Source: a virus. From it: a stretch of 19,427 nt of DNA. The stretch lies in the UHGV virus genome UHGV-0123532; one strand, 5' to 3'. Below are positions 6,093-15,153 of this stretch, piece by piece. The notes under the pieces are model-generated. The model did no database searches, was not told the origin of the DNA, and saw only the letters and a program-made list of their open reading frames with translations. Each line of letters begins with the position of its first letter. Positions within the stretch are counted from its first letter, which is position 1. The translations under genes and the position numbers were made by a program.

Positions 6093-7844
6093 ATGATTCA
6101 GGACGCTTTTGTGCGCCAGCGTGCGCGGCAACTTTACTGGCAGGGTTATCCGCCCGCAGAAATATCACGTCTGATGGGAATAAACCCGAACACGATTTAT
6201 GCGTGGAAAAAACGCGACCAGTGGGATGAAACGCCACCCGTGCAGCGTGTCACGCAGTCCATCGATGCGCGCCTCATCCAGCTTACTGAAAAACAGAATA
6301 AAACAGGCGGTGACTTTAAGGAAATTGACCTGCTGACCCGGCAGCTTAAAAAAATGCATGATGGCCAGCCGGATGCGACGGCCACAGGAAAGAAAGGCCG
6401 GGCGAAAAAACTCAAAAATCATTTCACGCCGGAACAGATTGCCGCACTGCGGGAAAAAATCATCAGCAGGCTGGAGTGGCATCAGCGGGGCTGGTTTGAC
6501 TCCCTGACCCTTTGCAGGGAAGCCGGGATACGTAACAGGATGATCCTGAAATCCCGACAGATTGGCGCGACCTGGTATTTTGCACAGGAAGCACTGCTGA
6601 TGGCGCTGCGTGACGATGTGGCGCAACCTTACCAGCGTAACCAGATTTTTTTGTCTGCGTCGCGTCGTCAGGCGTTCCAGTTTAAAAGCATTATTCAGAA
6701 GGCTGCGGCTGAAGTTGATGTGGAGCTGAAAGGGGGCGATAAAATCATCCTCTCCAACGGCGCAGAGCTGCATTTTCTCGGCACTTCTGCTGCGTCGGCG
6801 CAGTCCTATACGGGCAATTTTTATTTTGATGAATTTTTCTGGGTCAGTCGCTTTGCTGAACTGCGCAAGGTGGCTGGCGCTATGGCAACCCTCAGCGGAT
6901 TGCGGCGCACCTACTTCTCCACGCCATCCACCGAAACGCACGAAGCATACGCCTACTGGAACGGCGACCGCTGGAACGAGAAAAAGGCCACACATAAACG
7001 CCAGCGTTTTTCTGTGGACTGGAAAACACTGCATAACGGGCTTATCTGCCCTGACCGGACGTGGCGGCAAATTGTCACGCTGGAAGATGTGGTTAATCAC
7101 GGCTGGAAACACACCGATATCGACGAAATTCGTGATGAAAACACCGAAGACGAGTTCCTCAATCTCTATATGTGTGAGTTTGTCCGCGAAGGGGAATCGG
7201 CATTTAACCTGAATATCCTGATTGGCTGCGGTGTTGACGGATACGACGACTGGAAAGACTGGAAACCTTTTGCTCCCCGCCCGATGGGGAATCGTCCGGT
7301 ATGGATTGGGTATGACGCAAACGGCAGCAGTGGCAACGGCGACAGCGGCGCTGTGTCCGTGGTGGTTCCTCCGGCTGTTCCTGGTGGCCGTTTTCGAACG
7401 GTGGAGACGCGACGCGTTCAGGGGCTGGAGTTTGAAGAACAGGCCAGAGTCATTGAAGATTTCACGTATCGCTACAACGTGGAACACATCGGCATTGATG
7501 TGACGGGCGGGAACGGGGAGGCTGTTTATCAGATAGTGAAACGGTTTTTCCCTGCCGCTATTCCGTACACCTTCACGCTGTCATCAAAACGGTCGCTTGT
7601 ACTGAAAATGCTGCAAATAATGCGTGCCGGGCGGTGGGAATACGATCGCGCCGAACGCGAGCTGGTCGCGGCCTTTAACGCCGTGCGTAAGGTGAAAACA
7701 CCGGGCGGCTTTATCACTTACGAAACGGACCGCGCGAGGGGGATCAGCCACGGCGACCTTGCGTGGGCAACCATGCTTGCTGTCATTAACGAACCAATTG
7801 GCGGCGAAGGAGAAAACGAGCGTTTCACGGTTATGGAGTTCTGA
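6093..7844 (+). CDS. P: terminase large (ATPase) subunit, gpP-like
   Basis: 583-aa ORF, length and position match P2 gpP; stop overlaps the Q start (TGATG at 7842-7846). Confidence 0.85.
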   Translation: MIQDAFVRQRARQLYWQGYPPAEISRLMGINPNTIYAWKKRDQWDETPPVQRVTQSIDARLIQLTEKQNKTGGDFKEIDLLTRQLKKMHDGQPDATATGKKGRAKKLKNHFTPEQIAALREKIISRLEWHQRGWFDSLTLCREAGIRNRMILKSRQIGATWYFAQEALLMALRDDVAQPYQRNQIFLSASRRQAFQFKSIIQKAAAEVDVELKGGDKIILSNGAELHFLGTSAASAQSYTGNFYFDEFFWVSRFAELRKVAGAMATLSGLRRTYFSTPSTETHEAYAYWNGDRWNEKKATHKRQRFSVDWKTLHNGLICPDRTWRQIVTLEDVVNHGWKHTDIDEIRDENTEDEFLNLYMCEFVREGESAFNLNILIGCGVDGYDDWKDWKPFAPRPMGNRPVWIGYDANGSSGNGDSGAVSVVVPPAVPGGRFRTVETRRVQGLEFEEQARVIEDFTYRYNVEHIGIDVTGGNGEAVYQIVKRFFPAAIPYTFTLSSKRSLVLKMLQIMRAGRWEYDRAERELVAAFNAVRKVKTPGGFITYETDRARGISHGDLAWATMLAVINEPIGGEGENERFTVMEF

Positions 7845-8890
7845 TGAGCAGAAAAAATAAAAAAGTGCGCATGAGTTCACGCATTGATCTCGCTGATGCA
7901 CTCAGGAAAGAATCGTCGCTCAGTGCATTCACTTTTGATGGTCCTTATCGCCTGACCGGGCATGATTTGCTGGACAATATGTACTGTGCTGATAACGGGC
8001 GGTGGTATGAAACCCCGGTGGACTGGTACGGTCTGGCAAGAGCCGCCCGGCAAACGTCCTGGCATCAGTCTGCGCTTTACTTTAAGCGCAATGTATTGCT
8101 CGGTTGCTACATCCCGCACCCGCTGCTTTCCCGGCAGGATTTCTCGGCACTGGCGCTGGACTGGTTTGTGTTCGGTAACGCATTCCTTGAGCTTCGAAGC
8201 AATATGCTCGGCGAACCGCTTAAATTACGGCACGCCCTGGCGAAATACATACGACGCGGAAGCGATCTTGAATCATGGTGGTATGTGCAGGATGGCAAGG
8301 ATGCGTTCCAGTTTCGCCCTGGCAAAGTGTGCCACCTGATGAATCCTGACATTAACCAGGAAATCTACGGCATGCCGGAATATCTCGGCGCATTACTCTC
8401 GGCCAGCCTGTCTCATTCGGCGGACATGTTCAGAAAACTGTATTACGACAACGGATCCCACGCCGGGTGCATCATCTACATCGGTGCAGCGCAGGTAAAC
8501 CGCGAAAGCATGGACTCTCTGAAAGAAACGCTACAGGGTGCACGTGGTGGCGGTGCGTTTAAAAACGTGCTCATTCATGCGCCCAACGGGGGCAAAGAGG
8601 GGGTGCAAATTTTGCCGTTCCAGCAGATCACCGCAAAGGATGAGTTCATGAATGTTAAGGCGGCATCCCGTGATGATGTGCTGGCTGCGCACCGCGTTCC
8701 GCCGCAACTAATGGGGGCGATGCCGGGTGAAAAAAGTGCGTTTGGTGATGTGGAGAAGGCCGCGCGGGTTTACGCAATTAACGAGCTGATGCCCATCATG
8801 GAGGCCATGAAGCACATCAATGACTGGCTTGGCGAAGAGGTGATCCGCTTTAACCCTTACGCACTGTTAGATACCCAGCTCACATCCTGA
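7844..8890 (+). CDS. Q: portal (capsid vertex) protein, gpQ-like
   Basis: 348-aa ORF translationally coupled to P; length and position match P2 gpQ. Confidence 0.85.
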   Translation: MSRKNKKVRMSSRIDLADALRKESSLSAFTFDGPYRLTGHDLLDNMYCADNGRWYETPVDWYGLARAARQTSWHQSALYFKRNVLLGCYIPHPLLSRQDFSALALDWFVFGNAFLELRSNMLGEPLKLRHALAKYIRRGSDLESWWYVQDGKDAFQFRPGKVCHLMNPDINQEIYGMPEYLGALLSASLSHSADMFRKLYYDNGSHAGCIIYIGAAQVNRESMDSLKETLQGARGGGAFKNVLIHAPNGGKEGVQILPFQQITAKDEFMNVKAASRDDVLAAHRVPPQLMGAMPGEKSAFGDVEKAARVYAINELMPIMEAMKHINDWLGEEVIRFNPYALLDTQLTS

Positions 8891-8917
8891 CGCGCTTCGC
8901 TTGTCTGCTGCTTCGCC

Positions 8918-8940
8918 GGGGCATAAAAAATTTATGCCCC
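8918..8940. terminator. hairpin downstream of Q (ggggcataaa-aaa-tttatgcccc)
   Basis: Perfect 10-bp stem with 3-nt loop starting 28 bp after the Q stop; no clean U-tract, so a weak or factor-assisted terminator. Confidence 0.4.
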
Positions 8941-9220
8941 GACTCTCCAGCTCCTGTATCAGTCAGATAATTTCACGACGCTTTACAGTATATCGCCACC
9001 ATCGACGGTCAGACTCTTACGCAATCCCACCGCGTTGACTGCATGTTCTTCGCCGCCTCAGTGCGATTTTGACGGCCTTACCTTTCACCCCATCAAATCA
9101 GAATCCCTCACGTATTTTTCACGCTCAGCGTGAGAAATACAGCCATTCTGTTGTGTCTCTGCGACATCGTTCAGGGAATGCTATTTACCCCCTGAAACGC
9201 GGGCTGTTCCCCCGTCACCT

Positions 9221-9272
9221 GCGCGCAGAAAAAACGCGTTTTTTTGTGCATGCACGGATCCTTGACGGATCC
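9221..9272. repeat. dense cluster of short palindromes
   Basis: GCGCGC (9221-9226), AAAAAACGCGTTTTTT (9229-9244), GTGCATGCAC (9246-9255), GGATCC twice (9256-9261, 9267-9272), all seen directly. Confidence 0.6.
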
Positions 9273-9315
9273 AGCCGCCACGCGGGCCGGAAGGGTAAAA
9301 AGTCGTTCAAAAAAA

Positions 9316-9345
9316 TTGTGCAAATTTGTGCACTATTGTGCAAAC
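9316..9345. repeat. three tandem copies of TTGTGCA at exact 10-bp period
   Basis: tTGTGCAaat / tTGTGCActa / tTGTGCAaac at 9316, 9326, 9336; helical-turn phasing suggests a protein-binding array. Confidence 0.55.
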
Positions 9346-9581
9346 CGAACGGAGTGCTTATTTATAGAAAAATTGAGCCTATGTATACGACGTTGCTTAT
9401 AAATACATCCCTGACTGTTATGTGAAAATATGCAAAGAAAATTACATGCTATGGAGATGAGAGTTATAACGACCTTTTCTACTTATTTGTAAAAGAGGTC
9501 GTTATGTAAAAGTTAAATTATTTTTTACTCTTGATATGTGTAAAAAATATAGCTTTGATGTTTATATCCTATTAGAATATA

Positions 9582-11279
9582 TTATTTATCCTCTTTAATG
9601 ATTTTGTTATAGTCAAAATCCCAAATTTTTCTGTCAATGCCGTTTGTTGGTGTAACCCGGTAGAATAAGGATCGTAATCCATTGTAAAAATACTGGAGAG
9701 ATTTCTGATTTTCTGGTTTGTCTAACCAGTTTCTTGTAATCATTCTAAAGAATTCAATATGCTGATTGAATATTTTCTTATTTAATTTTCTTCTTAAACC
9801 GGATGTAGACTCATGGTTGTCTTTTCTTTTCTGAATTTCAGTTTCAATTGATTGTAATTGAGGACGTATCTTGAGTAAGTATAACTCTTTCGAAAAACCA
9901 TTGTTAATTATATCCTGATTTTCCCAGAAGGAAGAGTCGTCGGTATTATAAAGGTGCTCACAATGCTCAAATATCAATTGTTCTGGAGCTTTTTCACCCG
10001 GCAGTGATATAATTCCTCTCTGATCCTCAGGGCTGTGATCTCCATCAAGAATACAAATTGATTTTAACGAGGTTTCCTTAAGATGAGAATCATTAAAAAT
10101 AGTTTTTAAATTGTCTGCACCAATGAAACAATCAATTAAGTGAAATGAATTACTAACTATAGCAAAATTTGGATATTTGCTTATCCAATAACCAAGTATT
10201 TCATTAAATAAAAAGCGAGCTTCTTCATCTTCCGTGAAAACTGGTATCTTGTTCCTTGTGTATATCTCATCCTTTGTTTGTGTTTTCAGATACATTGTTA
10301 TTTTTAATATATCAGGATTATCCAAAAGCAGAGCCTTTGTAATATTGTTAATTAGATAGACAACATGGTATTTTTTATGAAAAGCATATTCTAGCAATGT
10401 CAGACTGTGCGTTGTGAAAAATACTTGAATCTTATAATCTTTTGCGTATTGATAAATTTTATCTAATAATCTTATCTGTAAAGAAGGATGTAAAGTGGCA
10501 TCAAATTCATCTATTAACAGAATGCTTTCTTTTTGATCAGTGGATTGAATAAGTGATTCAAAATAATACCTAAGGCTAACTAATGCCTTGATTATAATGA
10601 ATATATTGTCTTCCCCGGATGATATGGTATTAGAATCAATTGCTGGGTTATCGGTATCAAATAATGGGCCAGCTTTAAAATCTCCGATATTGTTTGATTC
10701 TATATTTATAATATTAATGCCCAAAAGTTCATTATATATTTTCGATATATAACCAACATACTCTTCTGGTAGGTTTAACGGAATTTTTGTAAGGGCGTCG
10801 TCTTTAGTTTCACCAATTGGGAATAGTCGCGATAATCCAAGATATAAAACTGGTTTAGCTGGAAGTGATTGTTTTTCTTTTCCGCGTGGGTATACTGGTT
10901 TGATAGCATACCGTTGCGCTTCGTCTGGATTTTTTGAGTTGTGCTTTCTGAAGTCTAGTGTGCTATGATCCAAATAGTTAATAGAAAATAACACACCTTT
11001 TGTTCCCTCTGCCGGATCGGTGTAATTTTTTGATTCCCTAACAATTGCTTCCATTTTGGGGTTGGCTATTTTGTTTATAGATTTTATAACTCTAACACAA
11101 TTACTATTTGAATAATTTTGTGATCGAGATGGTGGCATTTGGAAACCATTGCTAATTAAATGAAGCAATGTTGTCTTACATGTCCCATTGGTTCCTGATA
11201 TTATATTGATGTCTTCATTGAATGAGAAGTCAATATCTATCAGTTTCTTAAATTTTTTAAAACTAATTTCTTTAATCAT
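9582..11279 (-). CDS. OLD-family ABC-type ATPase with C-terminal Toprim-like nuclease region (565 aa)
   Basis: N-terminal P-loop SGTNGTCKTTLL; Walker B/D-loop LLIDEFDATLHP and H-loop FFTTHS typical of AAA_15/AAA_21 OLD-like ATPases; downstream conserved acidic motifs VFTEDEE and ILDGDHS spaced like the Toprim Glu and DxD; AGGA RBS; AT-rich. Confidence 0.6.
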   Translation of the reverse strand: MIKEISFKKFKKLIDIDFSFNEDINIISGTNGTCKTTLLHLISNGFQMPPSRSQNYSNSNCVRVIKSINKIANPKMEAIVRESKNYTDPAEGTKGVLFSINYLDHSTLDFRKHNSKNPDEAQRYAIKPVYPRGKEKQSLPAKPVLYLGLSRLFPIGETKDDALTKIPLNLPEEYVGYISKIYNELLGINIINIESNNIGDFKAGPLFDTDNPAIDSNTISSGEDNIFIIIKALVSLRYYFESLIQSTDQKESILLIDEFDATLHPSLQIRLLDKIYQYAKDYKIQVFFTTHSLTLLEYAFHKKYHVVYLINNITKALLLDNPDILKITMYLKTQTKDEIYTRNKIPVFTEDEEARFLFNEILGYWISKYPNFAIVSNSFHLIDCFIGADNLKTIFNDSHLKETSLKSICILDGDHSPEDQRGIISLPGEKAPEQLIFEHCEHLYNTDDSSFWENQDIINNGFSKELYLLKIRPQLQSIETEIQKRKDNHESTSGLRRKLNKKIFNQHIEFFRMITRNWLDKPENQKSLQYFYNGLRSLFYRVTPTNGIDRKIWDFDYNKIIKEDK

Positions 11280-11296
11280 CTATATCATCCTTAAAT

Positions 11297-12142
11297 TTAA
11301 ATGTCAGGGATTTTTATACCATGATTATAAATGATAATTTCTAGACCTTTTTTCTTATCTTGTGCAGTATAATTAAGCGTATAATCAGTCATATTGAATT
11401 CATGATATATGCTTTTTATTTCAGGCACATTGTCATAAGACACAACCCAAGGTAGTTGAATTTCCCGTAGTGTATTAGCGATTTTTACATGATCATCATG
11501 TTTATAAAAATTTCTATATAACTCTGCTCCTTTAACATAATAAGGTGGATCAAGATATATTAGACTATTTTGGGGTAGCAATGCTTTTTGGTGTAGCAGA
11601 AAATCTACAGCATCAAAATTCGATACGTAAATTTTCTCCTTATATGCACCAATTAGTTCAATCCTTTTAATTAACTCTTTTTTGTTGAATCTTGCATCTA
11701 ACTTCCATGGTCCTTTTTGTTCTTTCCCTCCAATAACGCCAGCCTTAAGTATTCCTGAACGGTTTGTTCTATTTAAAAAGAAAGTAGATAATGCGACTTC
11801 AAGCATACTATATTTATCATTGTTTAGGAGTATCTCCTTTTGAGTATGCCAATTTTCAATAGTCACAGGAACTTCATCAATCATTTCACATAACAGATCG
11901 TTATGATTAACCACTGCAAACCAAAAAGAATAAAGGGCAGGATCAATATCATTTATGAAGATATTTTCAACAAGACCGTTAAGGAGCAAACCTAATGCTA
12001 CACCGGCTCCACCTGCATAAGGTTCAGCATAACATCCACCAATGAGATCATTGTTGCGGAGTATTTGTTCAATATGTGGCAAGAATTTTGCCTTACCTCC
12101 CGGATAACGAAGAGGGGTTCTAAAATGAGAAGGCTTTGTCAT
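11297..12142 (-). CDS. Dam-like (D12 class) N6-adenine DNA methyltransferase (281 aa)
   Basis: LRYPGGK N-terminal motif, AdoMet motif EPYAGGAGV, catalytic DPPY; stop lies 17 bp upstream of the ATPase start, same strand. Confidence 0.85.
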   Translation of the reverse strand: MTKPSHFRTPLRYPGGKAKFLPHIEQILRNNDLIGGCYAEPYAGGAGVALGLLLNGLVENIFINDIDPALYSFWFAVVNHNDLLCEMIDEVPVTIENWHTQKEILLNNDKYSMLEVALSTFFLNRTNRSGILKAGVIGGKEQKGPWKLDARFNKKELIKRIELIGAYKEKIYVSNFDAVDFLLHQKALLPQNSLIYLDPPYYVKGAELYRNFYKHDDHVKIANTLREIQLPWVVSYDNVPEIKSIYHEFNMTDYTLNYTAQDKKKGLEIIIYNHGIKIPDI

Positions 12143-12229
12143 CCACGATTTTCTCAGTAAAAAATAAACATAATCTTAACATGGCACTTGAGTTTTCCCG
12201 ATAAAAAACATCGTCGCCGTCCATAGATA

Positions 12230-12247
12230 TTTGCATAGTTATGCAAA
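12230..12247 (-). promoter_or_regulatory. inverted repeat TTTGCATA-gt-TATGCAAA in the leader of the methyltransferase operon
   Basis: Perfect 8-bp arms seen directly; located between the predicted promoter and the MTase start, an operator-like or 5' UTR hairpin position. Confidence 0.4.
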
Positions 12248-12275
12248 AAATCCAGTTTTCAATGAATTAAGGGGA

Positions 12276-12305
12276 ATTATATCAATTGCATTCTATTCAA
12301 CACAA
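12276..12305 (-). promoter_or_regulatory. candidate sigma70 promoter for the MTase-OLD operon
   Basis: Minus strand TTGTGT-N18-TATAAT (perfect -10 at 12276-12281, -35 at 12300-12305), immediately after the gene A stop. Confidence 0.35.
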
Positions 12306-12327: not shown

Positions 12328-15153
12328 TCATCCCTCATGATGGAAAAGGCATATCCAACTTTGTAATTGTTTTTTCTCATCATCATTTTGATTACTAAAG
12401 TGCTGTTTGCCTCTCTTTTGGAGCAAAGTAGCCTTGCGGCGGGCGCGTTCAGTGGTTTCATTGATTCTTTGTGCGTGCTCTGCGTCACGGATGGCGCGCA
12501 GCATGTCAGAAAGCACGGTAACGGGGGTTTTCATGGTGTTCTGGTCCTGCTGAAGTGTGGATGCCAGACGTGCGGCGGCTTCGGGGTCTGATGCCCCCAG
12601 TTGTTCCAGATAGCTGGCGACCGGGTTATGACGGATCTCTGTGCTGCTTACGCCGTGATTACGGCTCAGGCGCTGCCAGAGCTGCGTAATTCGGCTGGCC
12701 GGGCGGGTATCCGGTTTGCGTACAATTTCAAATCCCTGCGGTGCAATGATGCTGCCGTCAACGTACAGGCTGCCGCCCCGTAACAGGTGCTGCATCTGCT
12801 GTTCACCGATATGCAGGCCGAGAGATTCGGCAGATTCCCGCCATTCTTTAGCGAGTAATTCGTGGTTATCAGGCAAAGGCCGCTGCTGTTTGCGGCTCTG
12901 TGTCCAGCTCTGCATTTCATCACTGCTGTTTTTTGCCTGTTTGTCACGAAGCGAACGCATCAGCGCCCGGCGTTCGTGCCGTTTCAGTGAGCGCATCCAT
13001 TCGTTCACTTCAACGCCGTCAGGAAGCTGCGGCCACGGTGCTGGCCGTTCTTTCGACTGTTCTGTCCCGCTGTTGCCTGTTTCCTGTACACGGGGACAGT
13101 TATTGCCACGAGTCCAAGGGGCGGCAGGGCCGCCCTGAAGGTCAAAACCATTTTCGCGGGCGCTGTCTTCCGCTTCCGGTTTGCGTCTTACCAGCTTCCA
13201 GTTATCCGGATGCGTGCACACACGGGAGGATTCCCCGATGAGTGGTGACCAGATCCCGTAAATCTGTACGCTCTGTTCGCCGTAATCGTTCAGCTCATCG
13301 GCGAGGTCGTAGGCGGTGCGAATCAGGTAGTCTTTGCGTGGAACAAGTACGCCGCCCTGTTTCTCAATGTAGGTGGCAAAACATCCGGCATCAGCGGCAG
13401 CAAGAACCGCATCCATTGCGTCATCCTTCAGCCGTTGCGGGCCTTCCGGGTTGCGTGCCATCTGGCTGGCAAGGCGACGCAGTTCACGCCACACCTGACG
13501 GGAGGGGATGCCAAAGAACTGGAACTGGCGGACCCGGTGAAGGCGCGCCCAGCCAATGGCGCGTTCCACGCTCTCGGTCATTGATTTTCCGGTTTCGTGG
13601 TCAACGCGTGGTTTGCCTGTTTTCGGGTCGATGCCATCCACGGCGCGGCTGTCCAGGTTTTTTCCGATGTAGGTGGCGATGTAGCTGGTTGGCGTGCCTT
13701 TTGAGCCGTCGACATACTCCGCCTTAAAGCGCGGAGTAATATCATCGCCCAGCTCGTGACGATCTTCCTGAATGGCAATATCGCGGGTGTGGGACACAAT
13801 GGTGTCGATTTCTTCCGGATGAGCAAAGACCATCATATGCCAGTGCACGGTGCCGTCATGGTGAGGCTCCACCGTGCGGATGCCATACCAGCGCAGGCCG
13901 TCGCGGTTCAGTTTCTTGCGGACCGCCGCAAAAAACGTGTTAACCAGGTAATCGCTGGAGTCGCGCATGGTGGCCCCGTTCCATTTGGGATTCGGATGAC
14001 CGTTCTCTGTTGTAGCGTGGTATTTTGACGGGCAGGTGACAGTCAGAAACACCGCTTTGTCGCCACGGGCTTCGGCCAGAAGTTCCAGCCCCTTCATGGT
14101 GGCCATCATTTCTGCCTTACGGTGAACCGGGTTACTTACTCCCGCGTAATACACTGTCTCGAGATCAATCGTGAACCCGTCTTCGTTTTCCAGCATGAAA
14201 CTTTTCAGGAAATCGCGTGTTTTCTCGCGCTGTGCGCGAAACTCGCTTAACGCGTCCTGGCTCAGATAGGGCGATGTTTTTCTGGAAACCAGACAGGCGG
14301 CGCGGAGTTGTTCTTCTCTCCACTCGCAACGTAACAGCCACAGTTTGCGTTTCCACCATTCCGCACAGGTCAGGCGAAGGATTGCGCCCGGCAGCAGCTC
14401 CGTGTCCGGTTCGTTCCTCCGGTCTTTGTCTGTTGTCAGTGCGTCATAATGTGGAGGCATGGCGTGCAGGTGTAACGCCATGCGGGCCAGCATCTGATAC
14501 GCCTTCAGCGTTACATCCATGGTCAGTTCGCCATCGGTCGCGCCAAAGCCATCGCAGAGTTTTTCGAAGGTGCTGCTGAACATCGCCGCCGTCATGGTGG
14601 CCAGCGTCTGTATCTGGTGTTTGTTGAGCTGCGGCAGGTAAAGCAAATCGTCCAGGCGTTCGCGTCCGGCAAGGGAGCGATAACCCTGTGTCAGCCAGCG
14701 GTGATCGGTGCGCTCCAGACGTTCGAATATTTTGCGCAGGTTTCCGCGCGCGTAGCGTTCAGCCTGCCAGCTCTTTTTGCCTTTCTGACGATCGGCTTCC
14801 TGTTTTTTGCGCAGGAAGGAGAGGTGGCGAATAAGCGGATCGCGCAGATAGGACGGCAGCAGGCGCAGCGAGGCCATGGCTTCATCCACCGCACCGCGTG
14901 CCTGTTTTCTGGCGTCTCCTGCCAGTGTGATGGTTTTGTCCTGTTTTTCCTGTGCGTCCAGGCTTTTATTAATCAGGTTGCCCAGCGGCGTTGCGGAGAA
15001 CGCCGCATCAGCCATTTCCTGGCGGCGCTCGTTCTCTACCCGGTAGGCATCCAGCCAGGAGGAAAGCGCGGATTCAGGAGCGGGGATCCCCGTTCCTTCA
15101 CGCCCCACTGCGTGGCGCGGTTGTTGCCAGTCCCTGATGTACTCTGCCGTCAT
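12328..15153 (-). CDS. A: replication initiation endonuclease, gpA-like (rolling-circle HUH type), 941 aa
   Basis: HUH-type motif TVHWHMMVF and paired tyrosines YIATYIGK characteristic of P2 A-family proteins; position after the early operon. Confidence 0.85.
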   Translation of the reverse strand: MTAEYIRDWQQPRHAVGREGTGIPAPESALSSWLDAYRVENERRQEMADAAFSATPLGNLINKSLDAQEKQDKTITLAGDARKQARGAVDEAMASLRLLPSYLRDPLIRHLSFLRKKQEADRQKGKKSWQAERYARGNLRKIFERLERTDHRWLTQGYRSLAGRERLDDLLYLPQLNKHQIQTLATMTAAMFSSTFEKLCDGFGATDGELTMDVTLKAYQMLARMALHLHAMPPHYDALTTDKDRRNEPDTELLPGAILRLTCAEWWKRKLWLLRCEWREEQLRAACLVSRKTSPYLSQDALSEFRAQREKTRDFLKSFMLENEDGFTIDLETVYYAGVSNPVHRKAEMMATMKGLELLAEARGDKAVFLTVTCPSKYHATTENGHPNPKWNGATMRDSSDYLVNTFFAAVRKKLNRDGLRWYGIRTVEPHHDGTVHWHMMVFAHPEEIDTIVSHTRDIAIQEDRHELGDDITPRFKAEYVDGSKGTPTSYIATYIGKNLDSRAVDGIDPKTGKPRVDHETGKSMTESVERAIGWARLHRVRQFQFFGIPSRQVWRELRRLASQMARNPEGPQRLKDDAMDAVLAAADAGCFATYIEKQGGVLVPRKDYLIRTAYDLADELNDYGEQSVQIYGIWSPLIGESSRVCTHPDNWKLVRRKPEAEDSARENGFDLQGGPAAPWTRGNNCPRVQETGNSGTEQSKERPAPWPQLPDGVEVNEWMRSLKRHERRALMRSLRDKQAKNSSDEMQSWTQSRKQQRPLPDNHELLAKEWRESAESLGLHIGEQQMQHLLRGGSLYVDGSIIAPQGFEIVRKPDTRPASRITQLWQRLSRNHGVSSTEIRHNPVASYLEQLGASDPEAAARLASTLQQDQNTMKTPVTVLSDMLRAIRDAEHAQRINETTERARRKATLLQKRGKQHFSNQNDDEKKQLQSWICLFHHEG

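Follow-up and report, generated by a model that had tools for sequence, protein, structure and literature searches.

A conserved cysteine before the Walker A lysine in a predicted ATPase-Toprim nuclease paired with a D12 methylase in a P2-like prophage

Nucleases that combine an ABC-type ATPase with a Toprim domain are a known type of phage defence protein. In the OLD family (P2 Old, the OLD protein 6P74 of Thermus scotoductus, GajA of Gabija and the effector of retron Eco8), the described classes consist of a single gene, of a gene with a UvrD-like helicase or of a gene with a retron reverse transcriptase, and the nuclease activity of the Thermus protein is reported to be essentially independent of ATP (PMC10568477). 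PARIS is composed of the ABC ATPase AriA and the DUF4435/Toprim protein AriB, including single-gene fusions of the two, and recent reports name tRNA, not DNA, as the substrate of both P2 Old and PARIS. HEC-04, a validated defence protein, needs the Walker A Lys and the E/D/D residues of its Toprim domain (bioRxiv 10.1101/2024.01.29.577857). PD-lambda-5 is compact, with two genes, and was regarded by its authors as the prophage form of a system of restriction-modification plus abortive infection, RM+Abi (PMC9519451). Here we describe a gene pair in UHGV virus genome UHGV-0123532, a stretch of 19,427 nt that we call the window. A 565-aa open reading frame (ORF) in this window encodes a predicted ATPase-nuclease of this kind, which has Cys in place of Gly directly before the Walker A Lys (Cys34), and the gene lies next to that of a D12-class DNA methyltransferase. 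With a probability of about 0.75, we consider that Cys34 is a lineage-defining and selectively maintained variant of Walker A (G-x-N-G-x-C-K-[ST]) in a working ABC-type ATPase, which would be the effector half of a methylase module in a P2-like prophage. The lineage-specific Cys and the methylase partner are new; the ATPase-Toprim defence nuclease as a type is known.

The ATPase half of the protein was recognized by sequence profiles. Pfam matches were limited to the ABC-type ATPase models AAA_15 (E=3e-12, 47 bits with a cut-off of 32), AAA_21 (E=1e-10, 42 bits with a cut-off of 27) and SMC_N, and phrog_3940, annotated as 'unknown function', matched the full length (E=2e-135) of the translation, which begins with MIKEISFKKFKKLIDIDFSFNEDINIISGTNGTCKTTLLH. 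The full-length AlphaFold2 (AF2) model had a predicted local distance difference test score (pLDDT) of 82. Its top PDB matches over the full length in Foldseek were the OLD effector of retron Eco8, GajA and Thermus OLD 6p74, and the ATPase-only proteins PtuA, Rad50 and SMC ranked below these members of the OLD family. AriB, Thermus OLD and the Toprim of Ec67 were the top three structural matches of the C-terminal domain. The Pfam models for Toprim, OLD and DUF4435 found no match in 60 members of the family, and PADLOC on the isolated C-terminal domain returned no Toprim, OLD or DUF4435 match and only a weak one to HEC-04. Because sequence profiles did not match this domain, its putative Toprim assignment rests on structure and motifs. 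It appears from the models that the protein is an ABC ATPase joined to a Toprim-like domain, with an architecture like those of OLD, PARIS and GajA. The sequence-only reading had called it an OLD-like ATPase, which holds for the architecture and not for family membership, because of the missing Pfam matches, a marginal sequence similarity (6p74, E=0.64) and a methylase partner that occurs in no described class.

Comparison with the described systems gave partial likeness in each case. Phage P2 old is carried in the same slot of the P2 prophage as the ATPase gene of the window, but OLD proteins have Gly at the position of Cys34 and none of the described OLD classes is linked to a methylase; with a D12 methyltransferase as its conserved partner, the window protein fits no described class. 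Our literature searches for a methylase-linked OLD class gave nothing specific. The PADLOC models AriA and AriAB matched the protein in the Walker B region only (E about 1e-15), DUF4435 was undetected in the 60 members and the resemblance to AriB is only structural; unlike the window pair, PARIS occurs without a methylase partner. HEC-04 was the best PADLOC match (E=1e-16 for the full length and 3e-7 for the C-terminal part) and the sole model that reached the C-terminal domain. It has the same layout, an ABC ATPase and a Toprim domain on a single polypeptide, but it is distant (58 bits), is embedded in Hma systems and is not paired with a D12 methylase. PD-lambda-5 (Vassallo et al. 2022) shares its methyltransferase family with the window pair (PD-Lambda-5_B, E=9e-122), whereas its effector is a ParB/HEPN protein and not an ATPase-Toprim protein. 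The ATPase ORF was also considered as a PD-lambda-5 effector and this was rejected, since PD-Lambda-5_A is the ParB/HEPN protein and its model did not match the ORF. The window system thus seems to be a different effector on a methylase chassis that is shared with PD-lambda-5.

Nearly all P-loop NTPases have Gly directly before the Walker Lys (the PROSITE-type pattern is [AG]xxxxGK[ST]), and this position is among the most conserved in biology. The canonical pattern had zero matches across the whole 565-aa protein. Its P-loop reads GTNGTCKTT, as the sequence-only reading had noticed, although that reading located it at 11190-11200, a segment that spans only I27-S28-G29-T30 and lies about 10 nt from the Cys codon. 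In HMMER alignments, Cys34 was exactly opposite the Gly of GNNG[QCK]GK[TS] in the solved PtuA and retron ATPases. Our searches of the literature for a Walker A motif with Cys at this position gave nothing specific.

The conservation of this Cys was followed at three depths. When about 5.8 billion proteins were searched, 1,352 homologues were retrieved, of which the 120 closest representatives of 90% clusters were examined. All 120 had Cys, at identities down to 45% and including those from Firmicutes (Desulfosporosinus, Sporomusa), and their P-loop consensus was G[TSAP]NG[TAS]CK[TS][ST]. A genomic scan with one genome per species, using query patterns of the signature and Walker B that were blind to the P-loop, found 80 loci; of the 75 with an N-terminus, 74 had Cys and the remaining one Gly. 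These species-level loci span at least eight phyla (Proteobacteria, Firmicutes, Actinobacteria, Spirochaetes, Deferribacteres, Planctomycetes, Kiritimatiellia and Tenericutes) and include Enterobacterales, Clostridia, Bacilli, Negativicutes, Collinsella, Brachyspira/Treponema and Mucispirillum. Among 1.84 billion 50%-identity representatives, 443 proteins matched the profile below 1e-30. Among the 70 full-length representatives of the core family at this level, 60 had Cys, eight Gly and one Ala, and one (P0203) was decayed. The Cys was therefore retained in about 85-99% of lineages, depending on the depth of sampling. In the genomic loci it was encoded by TGT (49) or TGC (29), and the synonymous sites nearby were randomised. 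The use of both codons amid scrambled flanking synonymous sites suggests purifying selection on the Cys itself. The two-gene cassette was present in 15 of 5,426 complete E. coli genomes with 98-100% identity. We inspected the codon in the window, in the 100%-identical copy of strain AR_0013 and in the most divergent E. coli copy (ZH177; 98.2% identity, 11 amino-acid differences), and both fetched copies kept TGT. A phage nucleotide search with the cassette gave no match, and tblastn gave distant relatives only. The homologue alignment that the sequence-only reading had proposed as a check thus showed a Cys essentially fixed in the clade, rather than a lone outlier among homologues with Gly, and of the three options that it had listed, a functional variant is the supported one.

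The rest of the ATPase appeared to be intact. The same reading had described Walker B and the H-loop as undamaged, and we found ILLIDEFD and TTHS in the translation, together with the signature ISSGEDN. All features expected of an ABC/SMC-like ATPase, namely a Walker B of the form hhhhDE, a signature-like S-x-G motif, a D-loop and an H-loop, occur in the right order. K35, S/T36, S220, G222, D257, E258, E350, D351, D412 and D414 were invariant in the Cys-, Gly- and Ala-type representatives of the core family, and in all non-decayed homologues G29 and K35 were invariant and T/S36 was conserved. S220 and G222 were invariant in the closest homologues as well, and only the decayed P0203 departs from this (S220 to G). 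H264 of the D-loop was invariant in the core family and was F or Y in some members of a sister family. H291 was replaced by Q or R in only three non-decayed core representatives (two Cys-type and one Gly-type); the substitutions listed for this residue are Q in P0136, P0151 and P0197 and R in P0212. Because the catalytic motifs are invariant, the H-loop nearly so, the ATPase is probably under purifying selection, and the set of conserved residues is what a functioning ATPase-nuclease would be expected to keep. Decay takes a different form, exemplified by P0203, a core-family protein of 572 aa that has lost the Walker Lys together with the Glu of Walker B and the His of the H-loop: its Walker A reads GTPETLTALLY without a Lys, E258 is changed to S and the His to Thr. 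The Toprim-like E/DxD residues of P0203 are intact and it may be a natural ATP-independent derivative.

The methyltransferase gene is the first of the operon, and the 17-nt spacer before the ATPase gene holds an AAGGA ribosome-binding site. Besides the PADLOC model mentioned above, its product matched Pfam MethyltransfD12 (E=1e-20) and MTase_II of PADLOC (E=9e-108). A methyltransferase with its catalytic motifs is therefore tightly linked to a predicted nuclease gene, as in restriction-modification systems. In nearly all species-level loci with enough flank, a D12 methyltransferase (E<=1e-84) adjoined the ATPase gene, in both gene orders; adjacency was observed in about 60 of the 80 loci and the exceptions were mostly contig ends. 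The methylase is usually directly downstream of the ATPase gene, and upstream in Enterobacterales and a few others. Four loci have an extra gene between the two. The pair is also found in Desulfosporosinus, Proteus and Salmonella, and its distribution suggests that the pairing is ancient. Cloning of PD-lambda-5 needed an mrr-deleted host (PMC9519451), and because its methylase is of the same family, this hints that the modification is other than plain Dam GATC methylation. Two loci, L056 (3471-5237) and L057, from Rhizobium / Pseudorhizobium, have the Cys P-loop and are methylase-less over the 3.5 kb examined for D12 genes; the neighbours in L056 code for AbiTii and for a HerA-like protein (DUF87), and the region resembles a defence island that lacks the usual partner.

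We suggest the following scheme. The methylase would mark the DNA of the host and the prophage. The ATPase head would dimerise on ATP and, as a sensor or switch, would license the Toprim nuclease to attack invading nucleic acid that lacks the mark. Overall, the mode would resemble restriction, perhaps with an abortive component. In the P-loop, backbone amides, Lys35 and Thr36 would still grip the phosphates. The lineage would tolerate a side chain before the Lys, and the Cys, fixed in the core family, plausibly tunes nucleotide binding or turnover. Our observations are the conservation, the codon usage, the intact catalytic motifs, the fold and the gene linkage; that the protein hydrolyses ATP, what its nuclease domain cuts, that methylation protects the carrier's own DNA and that the thiol has a specific role are parts of the proposal.

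Several points weigh against this interpretation. The Gly-type members are scattered and have the same methylase partner, so the Cys is not indispensable. For any member of the family, we infer the binding and hydrolysis of ATP with a Cys before the Lys from conservation only. Since tRNA is the reported substrate of P2 Old and PARIS, the nuclease may have a target other than DNA. The two Rhizobiaceae loci, in which there is no D12 methylase within 3.5 kb, are awkward for a strict restriction-modification model.

The chief rival view of the residue is that of a frozen accident: Cys would have been tolerated in a permissive P-loop and fixed once by drift, as a neutral change without a specific role. 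We consider this possible, though not probable. It is favoured by the presence of Gly-types and one Ala-type inside the core family in the same gene context. The Gly-type proteins occur at at least four scattered places in a neighbour-joining tree that is star-like and poorly resolved, in which the direction and number of changes between Gly and Cys were not resolved, and the Gly-type P0187 has a D12 methylase neighbour as the Cys-types do. To a degree, Gly and Cys are thus interchangeable, with Cys strongly predominant. In the sister family (P0225-P0269; at most 200 bits with the profile), the residue before the Walker Lys varies between G, S, C, M, Q, Y and L, while the Walker Lys, Walker B D-E, signature and E350/D351/D412 are invariant and the H-loop and D414 are each altered in one member. 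With seven residue types at the site, the position seems to be unusually permissive in this lineage. A convincing partner that co-varies with the Cys was not found; T30, S252 and E223 were only weakly associated with Cys versus Gly, probably for phylogenetic reasons, and C61 and C409 vary freely within the Cys clade. However, drift does not readily explain why Cys was kept in so many lineages despite saturated synonymous change. Moreover, Ser is isosteric with Cys, can be reached from it by two single-base paths and is common in the sister family, but none was found among about 260 overlapping core-family sequences examined; this pattern points to selection for Cys in particular.

A Cys cluster or disulfide of C34, C61 and C409 was also considered, since the three are invariant in close homologues, and was rejected because C61 and C409 vary in the 50%-identity representatives while C34 stays. 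The four sister-family members checked, of the Met, Gly, Gln and Ser types, all adjoin a D12 methyltransferase. In the Gln-type locus (L090, 904-5786), there are extra genes, including an upstream 388-aa ORF with a faint signal of a Type I S-subunit (Methylase_S) and a 421-aa ORF between the ATPase and the methylase.

A side chain before the Walker Lys has a precedent elsewhere. The Walker A of the active ATPases MCM2-7 reads GDP[GS]T[AS]KSQ, with Ala or Ser before the Lys in the essential ATPases MCM2-6 (PMC2952866 Table 1), and this is independent evidence that a small side chain at this position is compatible with catalysis. These proteins are of the AAA+ class and not ABC/SMC-like, have Ala or Ser instead of Cys and are unrelated to defence. 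MoxR-type AAA+ proteins likewise have Ala before the Walker Lys. A large, ancient and selected family with Cys, together with its Met, Gln, Tyr and Leu relatives, would be a natural experiment on the tolerance of the P-loop, and a unique reactive thiol in the active site could be a handle for probing how the ATPase switches in immune sensors of the OLD/PARIS type.

For the system as a whole, the main rival is an abortive-infection sensor like P2 Old and PARIS, in which the ATPase detects a cue from the phage, either protein or DNA structure, the Toprim domain cleaves tRNA and the methylase has another role, either independent epigenetic, anti-restriction or as a trigger. We hold this combination, sensor and alternative methylase role together, to be a tentative possibility on the unlikely side. 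The closest folds, those of AriB, OLD and the retron Toprim effectors, point in this direction, as do the reported tRNase activities of P2 Old and PARIS and the AbiTii and HerA-like genes beside the methylase-less homologues. PD-lambda-5, in which a methylase of the same family accompanies a ParB/HEPN protein, was called RM+Abi by its authors. On the other side, the nuclease genes of both sister families have since ancient times been very tightly linked to a single methylase family, in either gene order. Such linkage is a classic mark of systems that tell self from non-self by modification, which argues for the restriction-like scheme.

A wider proposal is that the core and sister families form an unrecognised broad class of ATP-dependent restriction-like systems, composed of a D12 methylase and an OLD/PARIS-like ATPase-Toprim protein, in which the Gly of the P-loop is replaced by a functional side chain and the Cys thiol has a specific role. 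This is rather improbable in our estimate. If it were true, the thiol might, for example, tune ATP turnover into a slow licensing switch or sense redox or thiol-reactive cues during infection.

An inactivating substitution, which the sequence-only reading had listed as another option, would leave the ATPase as a relic without function, and the protein would work as a nuclease or scaffold that does not depend on ATP. The near-universal Gly and the reported, essentially ATP-independent nuclease activity of Thermus OLD speak for it. We nevertheless rejected it as very improbable, because the Cys is conserved in the clade and itself under purifying selection, the other ATPase residues remain invariant (the H-loop nearly) over deep divergence in the Cys-type members, and P0203 shows that real decay removes several motifs at once. 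Finally, although a single transversion separates TGT (Cys34) from GGT (Gly), a sequencing or assembly error (GGT read as TGT) or a private strain mutation is excluded for what the alignments indicate to be a conserved clade feature, since the cassette is present in 15 independent complete E. coli genomes, TGT stands in both fetched copies, including the independent one of 98.2% identity, and the Cys, in both codons, is fixed in the close clusters and nearly so in the loci.

The cassette lies in an AT-rich cargo island (Table 1), a slot between the portal gene and gene A that is the old/tin defence hotspot of P2 prophages (PMC9519451; PMC9122126). The flanking genes encode a P2-type terminase, portal, capsid and replication gene A, according to Pfam and the RefSeq annotation of identical copies. 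The GC content of the cassette is 30-33%, compared to about 55% in the flanking phage genes and roughly 52-58% in the prophage, which indicates its recent horizontal acquisition from a low-GC donor. Most of the homologues are in Firmicutes. We infer that the pair is anti-phage cargo of a P2-like E. coli prophage. It seems to represent a branch of these ATPase-Toprim defence nucleases that is coupled to a methylase and so far uncharacterised. The branch is widely distributed among Enterobacterales and gut Firmicutes, its place here is a prophage hotspot already known for defence genes, and current defence-finding profiles pick up its methylase only.

Table 1. Positions of the gene pair, its motifs and flanking genes in the window, and of the sister-family loci (own numbering of each locus).
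Feature	Position	Strand	Description and basis
ATPase-nuclease ORF	9582..11279	-	565 aa; ABC-type ATPase (AAA_15/AAA_21/SMC_N) and C-terminal Toprim-like nuclease domain; ORF, Pfam, AF2/Foldseek
Walker A / P-loop GTNGTCKTT	11169..11195	-	aa 29-37; translation, aligned to GNNGxGK[TS]
Cys34 codon TGT	11178..11180	-	replaces the canonical Gly preceding the Walker Lys
ABC signature-like ISSGEDN	10605..10625	-	aa 219-225
Walker B ILLIDEFD, then D-loop ATLHP	10485..10523	-	Walker B aa 253-260 (D257, E258)
H-loop TTHS	10404..10415	-	H291
C-terminal Toprim-like domain and helical tail	9585..10253	-	aa ~343-565
Putative metal ligands E350/D351	10218-10238	-	in FTEDEEA
Putative metal ligands D412/D414	10035-10052	-	in ILDGDH
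D12-class (Dam-like) N6-adenine DNA methyltransferase	11297..12142	-	281 aa; 17 nt upstream of the ATPase gene, same strand
Methyltransferase DPPY motif	11540-11551	-	
Methyltransferase YAGGAG	12002-12019	-	AdoMet-binding-like
AT-rich cargo island	9000..12300	.	between portal gene and replication gene A; P2 old/tin defence hotspot
Phage portal gene	7844-8890	+	Pfam Phage_portal
Replication gene A	12328-15153	-	Pfam Phage_GPA
Sister-family locus L088	4001-5548		
Sister-family locus L089	607-2175		
Sister-family locus L090	2144-3658		
Sister-family locus L091	142-1824		

Between the portal and ATPase genes, about 690 nt of the window (8891-9581) are without an annotated gene. This segment contains a strong hairpin at 9466-9505 whose arms are 17 nt long, two palindromes (8917-8941 and 9112-9140) and, at 9315-9344, three copies of the repeat ATTGTGCA(A/C). 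From the P2 map, the cos site is expected here, but it was not located; a putative 19-mer of the site had no match in the window, which is uninformative. The portal ORF is intact in the window, whereas in AR_0013 (L007, 7445-8491) it has an internal stop (DIN*EIYG), despite a cassette that is 100% identical to that of the window. This difference in the portal gene suggests that the window came from a different carrier strain.

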